Assembly (NCBI GenBank): GCA_016789725.1
Contig: JAEUQN010000002.1
Span: 24,035 to 88,034, forward strand
Source of the DNA: Blastocatellia bacterium
GTDB lineage: Bacteria; Acidobacteriota; Blastocatellia; RBC074
Length of the DNA: 64,000 bases
Direction: 5' to 3'
The notes beneath the pieces were generated by a model. That model ran no database searches. It saw nothing but the letters and a program-made list of their open reading frames with translations, and was not told where the DNA came from. Both the position numbers and the translations under genes were made by a program. Below, piece after piece: positions 14,187 to 56,729 of this stretch; the first letter of the stretch is position 1; each line of letters opens with the position of its first letter.

Positions 14187-14262
<76 letters not shown>

Positions 14263-28320: not shown

Positions 28321-30339
28321 TCAATTGACAAAGACGTCATCTTTAGAGACAAACCCCACGGTGGTCCCTTTAAGATTGACGAGCATGATTCGTTGTGCGC
28401 CCTGTCCTTGTCCGTAAGTAAATATTTCTCGCAACTTCACTTTTTGTTCGCTCGCCGCTAGTTCCAGCCACTGTTGTGTCACCAGGCAAATCATCAAATC
28501 CTGATGGAGTTTGACCTCGGTGAAGAACGCTCCGTGTGGCATTTGGCTTCGATCCAGTCGAGTGACATCGGTATCGTCTTTAGCCTCTTGTTTACGGCTC
28601 CGCAAAAAATTTGTCCCAAGGGCGACGGCTAACAGGATAATGATGGCGACCACCAACCATTTCCGCAAATTGTTTTGAGAGCCAGGTTTCAGACGCCTGG
28701 TCTTTTCAGGTGTGAGCGGCGCTTCTTGTACGCGAGATGGGGAGGCGTGTATTTCTGTGGGCGCAACCGTGTCGGAGGCCTCAGTTGTCGTTCGCCGTAC
28801 GATAGCGGATTGCAGACGCAGCCGTACAGTCATGAGCTGGTTGTATACTTGCAGTAAGACCTCGTAGTTGGCGTTTTGCTCATGCTTGGCTGTAACCTTG
28901 ATATAGTCCCGCACTTTATCCGACAACTCTCCCAATTGATCGAAAAGTTTTTCTATACGGGCTTCGATATCTGCACTGGGATCACAATCTTTTCCCAACT
29001 CCATCTGGACGATTTGGTCAGCCTGGAAGATCAACCCCAGCGTTGCGCGCCGGATCTTTCCTTCACCCTCTAATTCTGTGTGATCGCCATCTGGCAGAGG
29101 GGAGAGAAAGCTGTGCAAATCCAGTTTGCGAGTTTCGGCAGAAGCGTGGAGATAGGCTGTCACCAGTAATTGATTTTCTGGATCGGCGGCGAGCGCCTGT
29201 AGTTGTTCGTCCATTTCGACAGCTACTTCTGGCTCCAGACTAACTACAGATTCTGGCAATGTCTCAGGCGATGGATGAAATCCGTTTGCAAATGGCACTA
29301 ATAATGAAGGGTTGGAAAGAGTTGCCTCTCTTTCAATGACTGGAGGAGAGATTTGCAGCAGGTGTGTAAGTCGTGAAACGCGTTCTTGCGCTAGGTTGTC
29401 ATTTTGCGCATGGGTTTGCAATTCGCGCAGGATTGAGGAAATTTCGTCCGGTTCGTTGGAGTAAGTGTCGCTGAAGGCGTTGGTCAGAGATTGCAATGAC
29501 GGCGAAGCCGCTTGCAGCTCCGCACTTTCAATTTCGAGCAGGGTCAAAAAGCGATTATTAATGATGACATTGGATTCAACCGATGCTGCTGTCACTTCGG
29601 GCAGATAGAGCAATGATCCAACCTGTGTTTTCAAATCACGGACGCGTTGAAAAAAAGTCCGGTTCACCAATTCCTCGAAGCGGTTAATTTGTTTCGCTTC
29701 GGCAATAAATTCGTCGAATTGCTGGATACTTTGGCTGATCCGATGGGCGTCCGCCGGATCACTCACAATTGTTTCCCCCCACGCCAAACACATTTCGGTT
29801 AATCGTTTGGCTAATTGTTCACGACTGATTCGAAGGTGACGATGGCGCGTGGAATGACCAGGGTCTATATTGCTGAACAGCCGTGTGACCACAAAATCGT
29901 ATTTGCCCCGATTGGCGTCAGTGTGCGGAAGTGCCCGATAAAAACTGGTGAGTGCCGCCAAAGCATTCAAATCCAGTGACGTTGTTTCCTCTTCACAGAA
30001 TCGCCGTAGATGATACGGCATAATCGCGGCATCGCGTGCAACCAGCACTTGAAACACGATTTCCATCTCCTGATTGACGATACATACTGCCTCTCGAATT
30101 TTGTCTTCGTCCACCCCCCGGAGGGCTATATTGAGGTCATTGATGGAGGCCACCAGCGGTGCGAAATCCAACTTGTCGGGGATACGGTTGAGCATCACAC
30201 GTTCGAGGCTGGACATCACGCGTTCGGCGGCCTGCAACGCTTTCATTTTTTCAATCGCGCGGCGCAAATAGGCCAATGCCTTTTGTGCTTGCGGTGCAAT
30301 GCTTTTGGTCGAAGCTGTAGAGGTTGCAGATGTTGTCAT
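28321..30339 (-). CDS. large hypothetical protein, single C-proximal TM helix
   Basis: A 672-aa ORF. It has about 570 aa of predicted helical cytoplasmic region, one TM helix (WLVVAIIILLAVALGTNFL), and a ~90-aa C-terminal domain. No family recognised. Confidence 0.6.
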   Translation of the reverse strand: MTTSATSTASTKSIAPQAQKALAYLRRAIEKMKALQAAERVMSSLERVMLNRIPDKLDFAPLVASINDLNIALRGVDEDKIREAVCIVNQEMEIVFQVLVARDAAIMPYHLRRFCEEETTSLDLNALAALTSFYRALPHTDANRGKYDFVVTRLFSNIDPGHSTRHRHLRISREQLAKRLTEMCLAWGETIVSDPADAHRISQSIQQFDEFIAEAKQINRFEELVNRTFFQRVRDLKTQVGSLLYLPEVTAASVESNVIINNRFLTLLEIESAELQAASPSLQSLTNAFSDTYSNEPDEISSILRELQTHAQNDNLAQERVSRLTHLLQISPPVIEREATLSNPSLLVPFANGFHPSPETLPESVVSLEPEVAVEMDEQLQALAADPENQLLVTAYLHASAETRKLDLHSFLSPLPDGDHTELEGEGKIRRATLGLIFQADQIVQMELGKDCDPSADIEARIEKLFDQLGELSDKVRDYIKVTAKHEQNANYEVLLQVYNQLMTVRLRLQSAIVRRTTTEASDTVAPTEIHASPSRVQEAPLTPEKTRRLKPGSQNNLRKWLVVAIIILLAVALGTNFLRSRKQEAKDDTDVTRLDRSQMPHGAFFTEVKLHQDLMICLVTQQWLELAASEQKVKLREIFTYGQGQGAQRIMLVNLKGTTVGFVSKDDVFVN

Positions 30340-30428: not shown

Positions 30429-30893
30429 TTAGTTGAATCGCACTAAATACCGAGATGAAGGCAACACTTCTTGCAACGAGCCATTTGCCACAACCATATA
30501 TTTGGCAGGTGAGCCATCGCTTGTATAACCGTCCGATTCAATTGTGAAGTTGGTTTGCAAACTGGTGGTACTGGGGGACAGCGGAACCATTTGGTAAGTG
30601 AACCCATTACTGAACAATGCTGTGGCAGAGGTCATTGCCCCCAAACCGCCCCCCTGAAATGAATTCAACTCAGTCAAATTCGCATACCGGGAATTTTGCA
30701 TGAAATAGTTATGTTCAGCGGTATACATCAAGCGCAGATTGGAAATGGCCGAGGCCTTTTTGGAAGCCACTCTTGCGTCGTGAAGCATGGGGGCCACGAC
30801 TGCCGCCAAAATGCCAATGATGGCGACGACGAGTAACAACTCAACTAAAGAAAATCCAGTTTGCGAACGTTGGTTATTCGATGAGAAAAGCAT
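30429..30893 (-). CDS. type IV pilin / pseudopilin-like protein (prepilin N-terminal methylation motif)
   Basis: Class III signal QTG|FSLVELLLVVAIIGILAAVVAP with Glu at +5. No other pilus genes lie nearby. Confidence 0.8.
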   Translation of the reverse strand: MLFSSNNQRSQTGFSLVELLLVVAIIGILAAVVAPMLHDARVASKKASAISNLRLMYTAEHNYFMQNSRYANLTELNSFQGGGLGAMTSATALFSNGFTYQMVPLSPSTTSLQTNFTIESDGYTSDGSPAKYMVVANGSLQEVLPSSRYLVRFN

Positions 30894-31026: not shown

Positions 31027-31860
31027 TCAACTATTTTCTTTAGTGCGAAAAATCTTTGGATAGGTGATTTGCTCCAGAAAGAGACCCGACGGTGGGGCCG
31101 TCAACGCAACGATCTTTCGTGATTCCCCACGCAATTGAGCCGCAAACTCTTCAACAGTCAAATTGTGCCGGCCCACTTCAACCAGCGTGCCGACAATGCG
31201 TCGCACCATATTCCATAAAAAATGAGAGGCTGTAATCCGAAACCGAATCAAGTGAGCATCGGTCGTAATTTCTGCGGATTTGACCACCACAATTGTGGAT
31301 TCATCCGGGCGACTCGGGTCCTGTTTGCTGAAGGCGGCAAAATCGTGACGACCCACTAATAATTCTGTACATTTTGCCATTGCTGCGACATCCAGCTTGT
31401 CTTTCACCCACCAGACCTGTTTTTTCGCAAAGGCTGTTTTGCGGGTCGAAATTTGATAGACGTAGGATCGCGTTCCTGCGTCGTGTCGCGCGTGAAAATT
31501 GGGATGCGCTTCCGCTACATCCAGCAAGCAAATATCCGCAGGCAACCGATCATTCAGTCCATACAGAATTTCTTTGGGGCGCAGGTTCATCTGTCCGCGT
31601 GGACGAAGTTTTAGGTGTGCAACTTGTGCCAGTGCATGAACGCCAGCGTCTGTGCGACCAGCCCCGCCGACCTCAACACGCGTGCCGAAAAAATCTTCAG
31701 CCGCTTTTTGCAATTCACCTTGGATGGTTTTGGCGTTCGTTTGTTCCTGCCACCCGTGATATTTCGTACCGTCGTACTCAAGCGTTAACTTCCAGCAAAA
31801 TGTAGTTGAGGGGCGATGATCGGTCATTGATGTTCGGTAGTTATTTTTTTGCCTGTTCAT
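31027..31860 (-). CDS. truA: tRNA pseudouridine(38-40) synthase
   Basis: KLTLEYDGTKYHGWQEQ and the catalytic GAGRTDAGVHA. The start could be 31827 instead. Confidence 0.92.
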   Translation of the reverse strand: MNRQKNNYRTSMTDHRPSTTFCWKLTLEYDGTKYHGWQEQTNAKTIQGELQKAAEDFFGTRVEVGGAGRTDAGVHALAQVAHLKLRPRGQMNLRPKEILYGLNDRLPADICLLDVAEAHPNFHARHDAGTRSYVYQISTRKTAFAKKQVWWVKDKLDVAAMAKCTELLVGRHDFAAFSKQDPSRPDESTIVVVKSAEITTDAHLIRFRITASHFLWNMVRRIVGTLVEVGRHNLTVEEFAAQLRGESRKIVALTAPPSGLFLEQITYPKIFRTKENS

Positions 31861-31923: not shown

Positions 31924-31965
31924 CCAAATCTCAAATCTCAAATTTCAAATTTCAAATCTCAAATT
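31924..31965. repeat. heptanucleotide tandem repeat (YCAAATY) x6
   Basis: Reads CCAAATC TCAAATC TCAAATT TCAAATT TCAAATC TCAAATT. It lies between the HerA stop (31993) and the truA start (31860). Confidence 0.9.
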
Positions 31966-31992: not shown

Positions 31993-33672
31993 TTATAAAT
32001 CCCACCCGTCTTTCATGTACGTGTCTTTCGGCTTCGGCTTCACCAGTTTTGCTTCTTCACGTTCGCGTGAGGCTTTGGCGCTTTTGGCAAAATACTTTTC
32101 CCATTCTGCCGGAGCATCAATCGTTTCGCCGCCGTGACGGGTGACGCGTGGGCGCACCTGTGCCAGCACAGGCGTGTTGATCGCCACGCCGGAAACAATC
32201 ACTTGCCCTTTTGTCAACGCTGGCAATTCGTCGAGCAGCCGTCGCCCCGCGCCTTCGACCGATGAAGCAATCGTTTGCTGATCTATCGGGTTCACAATGC
32301 GCATAATGAATTGCGTCATGCATTGCGACAGTACGTCCTGATCGAGTTTGCCGGGACGCTGCGTAATCAAGCCGATGCCGACGCCGAATTTGCGGCCTTC
32401 GGACAAAATCGTTTTCAGGATGTTGGTCGAAACGACTTGCGTTCCGGCGGGCGCGTACCGATGCGATTCTTCCAGCAGCACGAACACCGGATACGGTAAA
32501 TAACTCTCATCGCCTGTGTTTGCCTGCCCGCGCACTGTCGCCACGCGCGCTTTATTTAAGCGTCGAAGCAGTGTGCCAACGATGACTTGTTGTTCGCTTT
32601 CTTCAATGTCGGAAAGCTGCAACACCGTGCATTGACCGGGCTTCAGCATATCGGTCAATTCAATGTGTTCGTGATCCGAAAACGTTTTGCTTTGCTCGAA
32701 GCGTCGTCGCAAGCGCCATTCAAGGGCGTCAATCGTCGAAGAGTTGCCGCCGCCTTTGCCCTTCTCATCTTCGTACTTTTGCCCCAGCACCGCATCAAGC
32801 AAATCCAGAAAGCCCCACGTGCCGCGCTCGCCGTTCGGACTATTCATAATCGAACGATATGCGGGCGACAAAATGGATTTCATCTTTTCGGTCATTTCCG
32901 GCAACAGGTAGATAATGTCCGCTTCGGTCAACGAAGAAATCCGCACGCGAATTTTGTCCGGTGTGAAGATTTTGACTTCCGGTGCATAGCCGTCCGCGCC
33001 TTTAAAATCAGGGTGTTTGTGCAATTCCGTCAGCGTGTGATATTCGCCGTGCGGATCAACAATCAGCACCGCCGCGCGATTGTGCGGCATCATCAACTCT
33101 TCGATCAGCACGCTGGCCGTATAGCTTTTGCCCGCGCCCGTGCTCGCCAACACCGCCAAGTGCGTCGAAACCACGTCTTTGACCGAAAGCACAATCGGCA
33201 CTTCATCGCGTTTGCGCGTCAGCAGCGAGCCAATATGCGCGCCGCCGTATTGCCCTTTTTGTTTGGGCGACAACATCCGCGACAACATTTCGTTGGAAGC
33301 AACATACACGCCTTGCCCTGGCATCGGTGGAATGCGCGGATTGATGAAATCGCTCAGGCCTTCGTTGAAATAGCCAATCGCTTCGACAGTGATTTCGTAC
33401 AACTCGACATCTTCGTCCGGCAAGCCAATCAAGCTCGCAACCAATGACGGCGGCGTGTTCGGATCAGACAAAAAGCTGTCCGGCAAACTGCGCACGAGAG
33501 CGCGTTCGGTGATCGTGCCGACGATGTTGAGCTTGCCTTGGTCGTCGCCCGTGTCCGCAATGTAAAAGACAAATTCGCCGATGCGCGTGCGTTTGTTGTC
33601 GCTGGTGATGAACGTGTATTGATGCGGAAATTCGCCGGGGCCTTTGACTGTACCGATGAGTGTTTTTTGCAT
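31993..33672 (-). CDS. herA: HerA-family (DUF87) hexameric ATPase
   Basis: Walker A LASTGAGKSYTAS, Walker B LIVDPHGEY, LLEESHRYAP, and GRKFGVGIGLITQRPGKLDQDVLSQCMTQFIMRI. An N-terminal barrel-like region and a Lys-rich C-terminal tail are also present. Confidence 0.85.
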   Translation of the reverse strand: MQKTLIGTVKGPGEFPHQYTFITSDNKRTRIGEFVFYIADTGDDQGKLNIVGTITERALVRSLPDSFLSDPNTPPSLVASLIGLPDEDVELYEITVEAIGYFNEGLSDFINPRIPPMPGQGVYVASNEMLSRMLSPKQKGQYGGAHIGSLLTRKRDEVPIVLSVKDVVSTHLAVLASTGAGKSYTASVLIEELMMPHNRAAVLIVDPHGEYHTLTELHKHPDFKGADGYAPEVKIFTPDKIRVRISSLTEADIIYLLPEMTEKMKSILSPAYRSIMNSPNGERGTWGFLDLLDAVLGQKYEDEKGKGGGNSSTIDALEWRLRRRFEQSKTFSDHEHIELTDMLKPGQCTVLQLSDIEESEQQVIVGTLLRRLNKARVATVRGQANTGDESYLPYPVFVLLEESHRYAPAGTQVVSTNILKTILSEGRKFGVGIGLITQRPGKLDQDVLSQCMTQFIMRIVNPIDQQTIASSVEGAGRRLLDELPALTKGQVIVSGVAINTPVLAQVRPRVTRHGGETIDAPAEWEKYFAKSAKASREREEAKLVKPKPKDTYMKDGWDL

Positions 33673-33697
33673 GATTCTATTTCAACTAAATGTGCGA

Positions 33698-34339
33698 TTA
33701 CTCTGTGCGTGAGATGTCCGCTTGTAAAAATAATCGTTCTAGTTCGCGCAAGGGCAATGCCGCAGCCTTTTCGCCCATAACTGCTGTGAGGTACCCTCGC
33801 ACTTCATCCCGATTCACCAGGTTGGGTTGTTGCAGCAGCCACAGCAAATCAATCTGATCTTTGCCGCGCCCCGCGATGTATTTCAGAATCACCATCCATT
33901 CAGGGCTGACAACAAAAAGTCCTTCGTCGGTTTCGACAGCATCGCGCAAAGCCGCTTCGTAAAACTCGCGGAAAAAATCGTCGCGGACAATCCAATCCAA
34001 ATCAATCTCACGTTTGCCTGTCGAAGCGGGGTATGTTTCGCCGCCAAAGCTCAATTTATCTTTGGCTGCCCAGCCGAGCGGTTTGTCAGCAATGAAATCT
34101 ACATCTGTGGTCGCGCGCGTAAAGCCGTACAGGTGCATCGCTAAACCACCCGCCATCGCGCAGACGATACCTTGTTCGCGTGCCGCTTGGCCCGCTGCTT
34201 TTGCCACTTCCAACCCTTCTTCTGTCGAAATAGATTGCTTGTCGGGCGTGAGGTTGCGGCGCAATAAGGCTTGGATTTCTTCTTTGCTCATACCTTTCAG
34301 CGCGTGACTGTAGCACTCTAACCGCGAGAGCGAAACCAT
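33698..34339 (-). CDS. small nucleotidyltransferase-fold protein (AbiEii/MNT-like signature)
   Basis: Pol-beta NTase motif [20 protein letters not shown] (GG..x..DxD) and a distal [16 protein letters not shown] 34339 overlaps the epimerase 3' end by 22 nt. ATG 34291 is an alternative start. Confidence 0.55.
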
Positions 34340-35271
34340 TCCACAAATTTACTGATGCCGGTTTCAATCGTCGTCGTCGGCACATAGCCCAGCAACTGTT
34401 CAGCTTTGTTGATGTCGGCGTGCGTGCGTTCCAAATCGCCGGGATGCATGGGAAGCCGGTCAATATTGGCTTTGACGCCAAGTGCAGTTTCCAGCATTTC
34501 GACCAGACGTTTGAGAGGAACCATTTCTGAACAGCCAAGGTTGATCGCTTCAAATGGCGTTTGGTTGTACTGCAACGCGGCGATGATACCGCTCACGATG
34601 TCGCTGACGAAGGTGTAATCGCGTTCCGTTGTGCCGTCGCCGTAAAGCGGAATTGGTTTGCCTGCGGTCATCAGCCGCGCAAATTTGTGAATCGCTAAAT
34701 CGGGGCGCTGGCGCGGGCCGTATACGGTGAAAAAACGCAGGCAGACGGTTTGGATTTGATAGAGGTGGCTGTAGGTGTAGGCGAACATTTCGCCTGCGGC
34801 TTTGCTTGCAGCATAGGGTGAAATCGGCAGCGGCAAAAACTCTTCTTTGAAGGGCGCGTTCGGGTTTGCGCCGTAGATTGAACTCGACGAGCCGAAGACG
34901 AATTTCCTGATGCTAAATTCGCGCGCCAATTCCAGTAAATGCAGGGTTCCGGTGACGTTGGTTTGTTCGTAGTCAATGGCCTGTTCGAGCGAAGGCCGCA
35001 CGCCAGTGCAAGCGGCTAAATGCACAATCGCGTCGAACGGAGTTTCAGAAAAAATGGATCGCAACCGCTCGAACTCTCGAATGTCAGCTTCAATCAATTG
35101 GTAGCGCGGATTTTCCAGATGGGCGCGCACGTTCGCGCGTTTGATTTCGGGGGCATAAAAATCGCTGAAGTTGTCTACGACGACGACGCGGGCTTCCGTG
35201 GTTGCGAGCAAGCGATCAACGAGATGGCTGCCAATAAAGCCTGCTCCACCGGTCACAAGAATCGTTTTCAT
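34318..35271 (-). CDS. NAD-dependent nucleotide-sugar epimerase/dehydratase (SDR family)
   Basis: Rossmann motif [17 protein letters not shown], catalytic YAASKAAGE (YxxxK), and SSSSIYG. Confidence 0.9.
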
Positions 35272-56009: not shown

Positions 56010-56651
56010 ATGAACCTTAACACTGCACAAGACCGAGCAACAGATAGCGTAACCGTGAAATTGGAAGCGGAAGCCAACTTACCTACCGAATTTGGGCCTT
56101 TCAAAATCGTCGGATTTCGCAGCACCAACAGTGACGAAGAATTCGTTGCTTTAGTCAAAGGAAAGATTGATGCCACCAAGGCAACGCTTGTTCGCATTCA
56201 TTCGCAATGTTTGACAGGCGATGTTTTTCATTCGCTGAAATGCGATTGTGGCCCGCAACTCAAACGGGCGATGGAATTGGTACAAGCCGAAGGCTCAGGC
56301 ATCATCGTCTATCAGCAACAGGAAGGGCGAGGCATTGGCATCGTCAATAAAATCCGCGCCTACGCCTTACAGGATCAGGGCGCAGATACCATCGAAGCCA
56401 ACGTTCAACTCGGCTTTGCGATTGATGCTCGTGAATACGATCAATGCGCGGAAATCATCAAACAACTCGGTGCGCGCCGCATCCGTTTGATGTCGAATAA
56501 TCCCGACAAAGTCCGCGCGCTACGTAAGGCCGGACTGGAAGTCGTTGAGCGCGTCCCGCTGGAAGTCAAAGCCAGCCCGCCAGCCTTTCGCTACTTAATG
56601 ACCAAGAAAGAGCAAATGGGACATTTGCTGCAATTGAATGGAATCTTTTGA
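56010..56651 (+). CDS. ribA: GTP cyclohydrolase II
   Basis: [23 protein letters not shown] (zinc Cys triad) and [35 protein letters not shown]. Confidence 0.92.
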
Positions 56652-56729
56652 TTTTGGATTTGCGATTTTGGATTTTGGCTTGGAACCTGATTCCAGCAAG
56701 CCAAAATCCAAAATCTAAAATCCAAAATC
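56650..56729. terminator. bidirectional hairpin with 33-bp arms built from GATTTTG heptamers
   Basis: Left arm GATTTTGGATTTGCGATTTTGGATTTTGGCTTG (56650-56682). Loop GAACCTGATTCCAG. Right arm CAAGCCAAAATCCAAAATCTAAAATCCAAAATC (56697-56729). There are 2 mismatches in 33. The structure starts inside the ribA stop codon and covers the last 5 maf codons. Confidence 0.8.

Follow-up and report, generated by a model that had tools for sequence, protein, structure and literature searches.

The locus lies in a 64-kb stretch of DNA of a Blastocatellia acidobacterium (below, the window means this whole stretch) and consists of two genes on the minus strand. The downstream gene (positions 31993-33672) encodes a HerA/DUF87 ATPase of 559 amino acids, a predicted hexameric translocase, and the upstream gene (33698-34291) a MenT1-like minimal nucleotidyltransferase (NTase) of the DUF1814/AbiEii family with 197 amino acids. 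A spacer of 25 nt (33673-33697, minus strand), in which the terminator scan was empty, separates the stop codon of the NTase from the first codon of HerA; since this spacer holds no terminator-like site, the sequence suggests that NTase and HerA are likely co-transcribed. Upstream on the same strand, a gene for an NAD-dependent sugar epimerase/dehydratase (34318-35271, Pfam Epimerase and GDP_Man_Dehyd) closes a glycan/ABC-exporter cluster and stops 26 nt before the NTase begins. On the other side lies truA (31027-31860, minus strand; tRNA pseudouridine synthase I, Pfam PseudoU_synth_1), which follows HerA as a conserved neighbour throughout Blastocatellia. The repeats that a preliminary description of this DNA had noted behind the pair were recovered as a tandem array of the heptamer CAAATCT (5.7 copies, 40 nt, 31925-31964; TRF and repeat search) and an 11-nt duplication, both within the 132-nt HerA-truA spacer. 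The same description had the pair inserted between the glycan operon and truA, which is not how the region presents itself: GC content is flat across it and the HerA-truA linkage is conserved backbone. A genomic-island origin of the pair was rejected on the flat GC and the conserved downstream synteny.

Pfam and PADLOC searches found no NurA, SIR2, DUF4297, AbiEi or HEPN gene adjacent to the pair, and the NurA HMM gave zero matches in the 64-kb window, in agreement with the local absences that had been reported earlier for NurA, SIR2, AbiEi and HEPN. As to regulatory RNA around the pair, Rfam returned just a tRNA at 14190-14262, and the numbers of predicted promoters and terminators were at the shuffle or chance level.

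The assignment of the 559-aa protein to the HerA/DUF87 ATPases on four motifs, made in the preliminary description, is sound. DUF87 was detected with 148.1 bits against a gathering cut-off of 23.2 (E=5e-43), covering profile positions 2-220 of 220, and all motifs of the FtsK-HerA superfamily are present on the minus strand: Walker A (GxxGxGK[ST]) (STGAGKSY, aa 177-184, positions 33121-33144), the DPHGEY motif (VDPHGEY, aa 205-211, 33040-33060), Walker B (hhhhEE/DE) with EESH (LLEESHRY, aa 399-406, 32455-32478) and the QRP motif (ITQRPG, aa 436-441, 32350-32367). Among NCBIfam models the archaeal DSB-repair HerA NF040819 matches best, with a score far below the equivalog level of the DSB-repair models (219 vs. 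970 bits; 148 vs. 800 bits for NF040937). The anti-phage HerA models NF042943 and NF042944 gave 93.5 bits against a cut-off of 800 and 88 bits against 850, respectively. Among solved structures the closest are HerA of T. kodakarensis (9x1l, 162 bits) and S. solfataricus (4d2i), whereas the SIR2-HerA structure 8wiv scored 99 bits. PADLOC HerA HMMs match as well (best E=5e-46), these profiles being generic for HerA. As the matches in Pfam, NCBIfam and the PDB all point to a NurA-type rather than an anti-phage HerA, the protein appears to be the Blastocatellia orthologue of NurA-associated HerA, closest to the archaeal HerA of the NurA type. At the loci compared HerA is 73-95% identical to the window protein, vs. 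58-78% for TruA and 69-82% for QueG, and judged from such alignments it is a conserved, slowly evolving core gene of Blastocatellia under very strong purifying selection.

The mechanical open reading frame of the NTase runs to position 34339 (213 aa), but its homologues begin at MSKEEIQ and therefore the shorter gene of 197 aa was adopted, which does not overlap the epimerase gene. The gene was correctly described before as lying 25 nt upstream of HerA on the same strand, and its motifs I/II ([20 protein letters not shown], positions 34094-34153, minus strand) and III/IV (33833-33889, minus strand, the region of the distal motif [13 protein letters not shown]) are those quoted. DUF1814 proteins are defined by motifs I-II hG[GS]x9-15DhD with an Arg, III K...R and IV +DxxD (PMC3985639). 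All four are kept here as GG, R-x-T-x-D-x-D, K...R and KDxxD, with G48, G49, R59, T61, D65, K137, R142, K144, D145 and D148 invariant and D63 present in at least 90% of 17 sequences of 51-87% identity. The Pfam AbiEii match (PF08843) of the protein itself is marginal, with 24.6 bits against a gathering cut-off of 22.5, while the same family is assigned in precomputed annotation to many homologues; a DUF6036 match is weak (Pfam, E=0.004). By sequence the NTase profile retrieved 5uvd alone from the PDB, and weakly (E=0.18), so that a fold search was needed. With the AF2 model (pLDDT 91.5), the best Foldseek matches are 5uvd and MenT1 (8an4/8an5), with TM of about 0.55; for MenT1 the probability is 1.0, E is 8e-5 to 3e-4 and TM 0.53-0.57, at a sequence identity of only 14-18%. 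The MenT1 residues of reference are T39, D41 and K137 (PMC10435456, PMC11375011), and the conserved Thr of the NTase aligns with the MenT1 phosphoacceptor (PMC11375011). Motifs, Pfam match and predicted fold thus bear out the earlier AbiEii/DUF1814-type assignment: by sequence and model, the protein is a small pol-beta NTase of this type with a bilobed MenT-like fold. A phage or mobile origin of the NTase finds little support: a search of 2.9 million viral contigs (IMG/VR) gave one weak match, and PHROG had no matching family. It was also considered whether the NTase might be a diverged small protein of the NurA operon (DUF8166/c46); this was rejected at an hhalign probability of 0.3%.

The preliminary description had proposed that the two genes form a coupled module, to be recognised by conserved adjacency in other genomes. 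Anchoring a metagenome scan on HerA alone gave 48 loci, 47 of which are without the NTase; within the clade of at least 70% HerA identity the NTase occurs at one of 26 loci, and two further HerA loci also lack an adjacent NTase. In the commonest setting a SerRS gene points away from the co-directional genes for an FAD-oxidoreductase, HerA, TruA and QueG. At the NTase-less loci 4-264 nt lie between the end of the FAD-oxidoreductase gene and HerA, and the two further loci are arranged likewise. Downstream, the order HerA, truA, prepilin-like, 672-aa and queG is kept in relatives, and HerA-truA-queG synteny is found at most loci with HerA of at least 74% identity. Approached from the NTase orthologue, which where linked lies 0-4.3 kb upstream of HerA, the adjacency is broken or missing at about one third of loci. 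The genes between the two are then HNH (0.9 kb), an MmeI/Eco57I-type restriction-modification (RM) gene, or NACHT, UPF0158 and VapBC (about 4 kb), and at three NTase-orthologue loci (L007, L011, L012) HerA was not found downstream within the stretch examined, where glycan genes lie. In the phylogeny of HerA, NTase-bearing loci are interspersed with NTase-less ones. Together with the multi-copy nature of the NTase family and the NurA linkage of HerA relatives, both described below, this mostly contradicts the coupled module.

Several observations were counted against independence of the two genes. The adjacency is kept in at least 11 species-level genomes with gaps of about 8-145 nt, the gene upstream of the adjacent pair differs between them (epimerase, AlkZ-like glycosylase or SerRS), and the NTase orthologue is conserved at 70-89%, about as HerA. 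Moreover, at one locus (L040) a different, DUF6036-type NTase of 148 aa overlaps the HerA start by 4 nt. In L040 and L044 another NTase paralogue is found two genes downstream of HerA, at about 3.3 kb, behind SNF2-PLD. An AlkZ-like repair glycosylase adjoins the pair in L015, L016 and L176. The genes that change at the HerA junctions comprise RM, NACHT, VapBC, HNH, SNF2-PLD and DUF433/DUF5615.

The NTase family is multi-copy, with up to four paralogues per MAG in unrelated operons. At more than 60 loci with paralogues of at most 58% identity there is no HerA; these paralogues are found in MoxR/BatA, beta-oxidation, MacB, MFS and other operons, mostly with gaps of 0-30 nt to the neighbouring genes. 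Groups of paralogues show stable synteny across genomes, and they change about as slowly as the housekeeping genes beside them. All-vs-all clustering of the neighbours of these more than 60 paralogues revealed no recurrent small or antitoxin-like partner gene, and no AbiEi/COG5340, COG4861 or MenA-like gene lies beside them or beside the NTase of the window. DUF1814 genes without linked antitoxins are known (PMC3985639). What emerges is a Blastocatellia-specific expansion of antitoxin-less MenT1-like NTases, mostly unlinked to HerA.

A different partner of HerA came from its more distant relatives. At 50-60% identity, HerA relatives are encoded in NurA(PF09376)-DUF8166-HerA operons, and DUF8166 is apparently an undescribed, conserved third gene of the NurA operon in this bacterial lineage. 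HerA and NurA are not linked in any of the clades of at least 62% identity. Several Blastocatellia MAGs carry a NurA-DUF8166 locus without HerA in the fetched flanks (4-8 kb), and in a cyanobacterium NurA-DUF8166 is also found without adjacent HerA. A NurA-like gene as the conserved partner of HerA elsewhere in this genome was among the findings that, according to the preliminary description, would count against its module. NurA is seen as operon partner at 50-60% identity and as a separate locus in Blastocatellia MAGs; the Blastocatellia NurA and HerA loci compared came from different assemblies, none of which showed NurA and this HerA together.

We consider it likely that NTase and HerA are independent genes which share a transcription string by descent and probably form no dedicated system; their adjacency would then reflect an inherited gene order rather than a new two-gene system. 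By analogy with characterised relatives, HerA would be a hexameric FtsK/HerA-type dsDNA translocase through whose ring a broken DNA end is threaded. A dimer of the nuclease NurA, bound at the N-terminal HAS-barrel face of HerA, would receive the DNA, and the resulting 3' tails would serve recombination. In Blastocatellia the ancestral NurA-DUF8166-HerA operon has probably been split, with NurA-DUF8166 at another locus and HerA fixed in the neighbourhood of SerRS, FAD-oxidoreductase, TruA and QueG, so that the partnership with NurA would be maintained in trans. The NTase, with its catalytic motifs intact, may, to judge by its homologues, move NMPs to RNA 3' ends, most likely those of tRNA acceptor stems, as one of a family whose members are wedged co-directionally into many unrelated operons in the absence of an antitoxin gene. 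Its position beside HerA was probably ancestral to the clade with HerA of at least 70% identity, after which the NTase would have been lost repeatedly and HerA always kept.

Alternatively, the NTase could be accessory cargo of a variable hotspot beside HerA, i.e. an orphan DUF1814 toxin or defence gene that is controlled in trans or by autophosphorylation, and whose arrival or persistence there would have the same cause as that of the RM, NACHT, VapBC, HNH, SNF2-PLD and DUF433/DUF5615 genes at these junctions. This we regard as unlikely. In its favour, both HerA junctions hold varying defence or toxin-antitoxin (TA) type genes among genomes, the hallmark motifs and MenT1-like fold are intact, including the Thr at the phosphoacceptor position, and unlinked DUF1814 genes have the precedent cited above. 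The paralogues, however, are stably syntenic, evolve slowly and for the most part belong to ordinary metabolic operons instead of defence islands, and the single match among viral contigs, the absence of a PHROG family and the lack of a compositional anomaly likewise speak against mobile cargo.

A real partnership of NTase and HerA, in the form of a facultative pair in which the HerA ring scaffolds, activates or restrains the NTase as it does with SIR2 and DUF4297, appears improbable. Such a pair could act in anti-phage defence or abortive infection, or as a DNA-end-modifying accessory of repair, and it would be new, because a literature search gave no NTase/AbiEii-HerA pairing, in line with the earlier remark that no such pairing was known to be described. 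In its favour are the 25-nt co-directional spacing with no predicted terminator, the persistence of the adjacency through changes of the upstream flank, the similar conservation of both proteins, the distantly related DUF6036-type mini-NTase in the same slot, the adjoining AlkZ-like repair glycosylase and the matches to PADLOC HerA models. It is opposed by the 47 HerA-anchored loci without NTase, by its repeated apparent loss with HerA always retained, by the unrelated genes found between the two, and by the distance of most NTase family members from any HerA. Furthermore, this HerA belongs to the core genes, evolves slowly among syntenic housekeeping genes and falls far short of the anti-phage cut-off (93.5 vs. 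800 bits), and relatives of HerA have NurA-DUF8166 as partners.

Another possibility, which we find very doubtful, is that this HerA works without NurA and pumps or translocates DNA in some other process, like that suggested for some HerA-like ATPases of Thermus in DNA transfer, and that the split of the operon reflects functional divergence. The absence of NurA from the window, its uncoupling throughout the clades of at least 62% identity and the solitary cyanobacterial NurA-DUF8166 would fit, as would the deletion phenotypes of bacterial NurA and HerA, reported to be modest or controversial (PMC9960219), and the reported link of Thermus HerA-like ATPases to DNA donation (PMC5365140). Against this, several Blastocatellia MAGs retain NurA-DUF8166, the sequence is closest to NurA-partnered HerAs, and the very strong purifying selection fits the ancestral role. 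Finally, the occurrence of three NTase lineages near HerA (the upstream orthologue, the DUF6036-type protein of L040 and the downstream paralogue of L040 and L044) could indicate that some Blastocatellia have co-opted their conserved NurA-type HerA as a hub to which accessory enzymes encoded in cis attach, the MenT1-like NTase then being a HerA-associated effector or client of a new class. In a related reading the antitoxin-less operon-embedded family would be a new kind of resident translational regulator and not a toxin. Such readings we likewise hold to be quite improbable.

Were the module real, the NTase would join the short list of HerA-scaffolded effectors (NurA, SIR2 and DUF4297); under the preferred reading of two independent genes the main value of the result is that a false lead is removed. 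Three by-products of the analysis have some modest value. One is a bacterial HerA lineage whose NurA operon includes DUF8166 and is probably split in Blastocatellia. The operon-embedded, antitoxin-less MenT1-like NTases question the view of all DUF1814 proteins as TA toxins, and a small variable slot beside a core gene gathers RM, NACHT, TA and HNH genes.

Among known systems, the NurA-HerA complexes of DNA end resection (drNurA-HerA of D. radiodurans, PMC9960219; T. kodakarensis 9x1l, PMC12977600; S. solfataricus 4d2i) share the DUF87 core and motifs with the HerA described here. They provide its best NCBIfam and PDB matches, and its relatives at 50-60% identity are encoded in NurA operons. 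Unlike in these systems there is no adjacent NurA, the NurA of Blastocatellia being found elsewhere with DUF8166, and the score of 219 vs. 970 bits marks the distance; the NurA of this bacterial lineage is moreover accompanied by DUF8166 as a third component. In the SIR2-HerA and DUF4297-HerA anti-phage systems (PMC11472057, PMC11291478) the genes for HerA and a small enzyme lie directly side by side and co-directionally, as is the case here. However, the neighbours in the window are an AbiEii-like NTase and TruA instead of SIR2 or DUF4297, this HerA is no cargo of an island but a conserved core gene with syntenic housekeeping neighbours, and the neighbouring enzyme is missing at most orthologous loci.

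The NTase shares motifs I-IV with MenT1 of MenAT1 (Rv0078A/B; PMC10435456, PMC11375011) and with AbiE (PMC3985639), and its predicted fold and its size of about 190-200 aa with MenT1. Whereas their cognate antitoxins are encoded immediately adjacent, usually upstream, the NTase of the window has no antitoxin gene beside it and is flanked by the epimerase upstream and HerA downstream, and the multiple copies of its family are stably embedded in metabolic operons. To the MNT-HEPN systems and the DUF6036 NTases there is a likeness in the small stand-alone pol-beta fold, in the weak DUF6036 match and in the DUF6036-type NTase found at this position in L040. No adjacent HEPN gene came up when the neighbours were scanned with Pfam, and in contrast to classical MNT proteins the C-terminal K...R and KDxxD motifs place the NTase with DUF1814.

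The preliminary description of the window reported two ORFs, both of which are present on the minus strand together with every motif that it quoted, and its identification of their products as a HerA-type ATPase and an AbiEii-like nucleotidyltransferase (NTase) was right. The HerA ORF (31993-33672, minus strand, 559 amino acids) matches Pfam DUF87 with 148 bits, and the smaller protein matches AbiEii with 24.6 bits (cut-off 22.5) and DUF6036 weakly. Mechanical ORF calling placed the latter at 33698-34339 (minus strand); the real gene is 33698-34291 (minus strand, 197 amino acids), since all close homologs start at MSKEEIQ. As read from the sequence, 26 nt separate it from the stop codon of a preceding sugar epimerase gene, and its own end lies 25 nt ahead of the HerA start. 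The surrounding genes are all co-directional and encode two GT28-like and one GT1/GT4 glycosyltransferases, a deacetylase-like protein, an ABC exporter and the epimerase, followed by the NTase, HerA, TruA, a prepilin-like protein, a 672-residue protein lacking a Pfam match, and QueG. The genes for the prepilin-type N-terminal-methylation protein (30429-30893, minus strand, 154 amino acids) and the 672-residue protein that follows it (28321-30339, minus strand) are syntenic in the closest relatives, where they were seen together in loci L001/L126 and L004, and the proteins show low conservation, at 36-77% and 45-47% identity. By its best hits, the window belongs to Blastocatellia (Acidobacteriota). 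GC content is flat across the NTase-HerA region. A scan around the pair found promoter-like and terminator-like sites at the frequency of shuffled sequence and none in the NTase-HerA spacer. The repeats noticed earlier are a heptamer array (CAAATCT, 5.7 copies, 31925-31964) within the 132-nt HerA-truA spacer. Facing intergenic heptamer arrays (TTTGGAT, 4.7 copies, and CCAAAAT, 4.1 copies) lie near 56.7 kb (56646-56729), and within the 64 kb Rfam matched nothing but a single tRNA gene (14190-14262, minus strand).

The best curated model for HerA is NF040819 (archaeal DSB-repair HerA), whose 219 bits fall well short of its equivalog cut-off of 970 bits; scores with the anti-phage HerA models are 93.5 and 88 bits. 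The nearest solved structures are the HerA proteins of T. kodakarensis (9x1l, 162 bits), a NurA partner (PMC12977600), and S. solfataricus (4d2i), followed by the SIR2-HerA structure 8wiv (99 bits). In HerA relatives with 50-53% identity (L130-L134) or about 60% (L122-L125), the upstream neighbor is a protein of ca. 200 amino acids, c46, which is itself preceded by NurA (Pfam NurA, E=2e-33; L130:2661-7680, L134:4173-7656, L124:3503-7653). Annotated NurA homologs exist in Blastocatellia MAGs, where NurA is followed by a DUF8166 (PF26500) protein of 195-197 amino acids that the c46 HMM matches with E=1e-46 to 1e-49 (L161:8001-9917, L163:6922-8736, L166:4001-5784); HerA is absent from the fetched flanks of 4-8 kb. 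These two arrangements suggest that the ancestral unit of the lineage was NurA-DUF8166-HerA, which appears to have been split in Blastocatellia, and we infer that NurA and the window-type HerA occur together in one assembly. A Leptolyngbya genome likewise carries DUF8166-NurA with HerA not adjacent (L189:5410-7179), and in the Blastocatellia set L164 and L165 carry NurA without a DUF8166 neighbor. The DUF8166 protein (195-200 amino acids) is consistently paired with NurA and could represent a third, so far undescribed part of bacterial NurA-HerA; the literature searched does not mention DUF8166. That the NTase is a diverged DUF8166 protein was rejected (hhalign probability 0.3%).

Adjacency of NTase and HerA was checked from both sides. 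With the NTase as anchor in a genome collection (80 of 151 loci retained), orthologs of at least 70% identity lie immediately upstream of HerA at 9 distinct loci. An HNH gene intervenes in L015 (distance 0.9 kb), an MmeI/Eco57I-type RM gene in L005, and NACHT, UPF0158 and VapBC genes in L003 and L009, the distance in the last three being about 3.6-4.3 kb. Glycan genes follow the NTase in L007, L011 and L012, with no HerA found within 2.9-10 kb of downstream sequence. NTase copies of at most 58% identity (more than 60 loci) have no HerA nearby except in L040 and L044, where the paralog lies two genes downstream of HerA. With HerA as anchor in a metagenome collection, the adjacency proved not to be conserved: among 48 loci that extend 700 nt or more upstream, a single one, on the contig of L001, has any NTase homolog, and within the clade of at least 70% identity the figure is 1 of 26. 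The usual order, also seen in two further HerA look-ups, is a SerRS gene on the opposite strand, then FAD-oxidoreductase, HerA, small variable genes, TruA and QueG; the interval from the end of the FAD-oxidoreductase gene to HerA is 4-264 nt, too short for a gene to have been overlooked.

On a neighbor-joining tree of HerA, NTase-bearing loci are scattered among NTase-less ones within the clade of at least 70% identity, and NTase identity follows HerA identity. This pattern points to one ancestral FAD-NTase-HerA arrangement as the simplest history, after which the NTase would have been lost repeatedly and HerA always kept. HerA itself is very highly conserved, with over 120 clusters (90% clustering) at least 72% identical to it, and in shared loci better than its neighbors (73-95% identity to the window protein, as compared to 58-78% for TruA and 69-82% for QueG). 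HerA stays next to truA far more consistently than the NTase stays next to HerA. Since we know of no functional link between HerA and TruA, gene order at this depth is no evidence of coupling.

The proposal that the two genes form an undescribed module with a real functional tie is therefore improbable, given the single NTase-bearing locus among 48, and no such pairing is described in the literature searched. It draws on an NTase ortholog about as conserved as HerA, on a junction kept in three settings, in which the gene upstream encodes an epimerase, an AlkZ-like glycosylase or SerRS, and on L040, in which the start of HerA shares 4 nt with the gene for a different, DUF6036-type NTase of 148 amino acids whose motifs are laid out in the same way. 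However, the junctions on both sides of HerA are variable slots that gather assorted accessory genes, and repeated arrival of small genes there does not require a functional tie. Genes collected are NACHT, UPF0158 and VapBC, MmeI/Eco57I-type RM or HNH between NTase and HerA, a DUF433/DUF5615 pair or a 23S-rRNA-IVP protein between HerA and truA, and a SNF2-PLD helicase after HerA (L003:5816-9972, L005:4431-7799, L011:10691-14077, L015:10703-11362, L176:5705-6272, L086:5123-5533, L044:3629-6784). The L040 mini-NTase (L040:4513-4959) is distant kin of the window NTase (E=3e-10 against the profile of the latter; shared GxxA...RATGDIDL and GRDKDQGD motifs), and the HerA that it overlaps is 76% identical to that of the window. 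The AlkZ-like DNA glycosylase gene (PF06224) lies directly upstream of NTase-HerA in one sublineage (L015:8855-9997, L176:2151-3293), lending the locus a DNA-repair flavor there.

Most likely, the window holds a core NurA-type HerA with a split operon, beside a dispensable NTase from a MenT1-like family that has expanded in this lineage and lacks antitoxins. Paralogs 42-58% identical to the window NTase, of which a MAG has up to four, are squeezed into unrelated co-directional housekeeping operons, mostly with gaps of 0-30 nt: within a BatA/MoxR/DUF4159 cluster (L018-L022, L031, L038, L041, L043), between a FadB-like dehydrogenase and a thiolase (L026-L029, L035, L047), between MacB-type permease genes (L023-L024), after an MFS transporter and after a SNF2-PLD helicase. 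Their positions are stable between genomes, they evolve only slightly faster than the adjoining genes, and their neighbors include no recurrent antitoxin-like protein. Several GTDB records from binchicken co-assemblies bear 'uncultured Heliomicrobium', 'Heliobacteriaceae' or 'Clostridia' in their titles (L016, L021, L023, L024, L031, L041, L045, L047, L062, L063, L067, L073, L076, L079); these labels look unreliable, since the NTase and HerA loci are of Blastocatellia type in sequence and synteny.

The family is of modest size (1432 representatives at 50% clustering, E<=1e-3), consists mostly of stand-alone proteins of ca. 180-210 amino acids, and is essentially missing from the viral contigs and PHROGs searched. 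Alignment of 17 homologs (51-87% identical) showed that G48, G49, R59, T61, D65, K137, R142, K144, D145 and D148 are invariant and D63 nearly so; these residues correspond to the DUF1814 motifs I-IV defined for AbiEii (PMC3985639). The best PDB matches of the confident AF2 model (pLDDT 91.5) are the fungal NTase-like protein 5uvd and MenT1 (8an4/8an5, TM ~0.55), followed by ANT(2'')-Ia. By homology, the NTase would be expected to transfer NMP to RNA 3' ends, most likely those of tRNA. Its T-x-D-x-D motif is the counterpart of T39/D41/D43 of MenT1, and its K137 that of MenT1 K137 (PMC10435456, PMC11375011).
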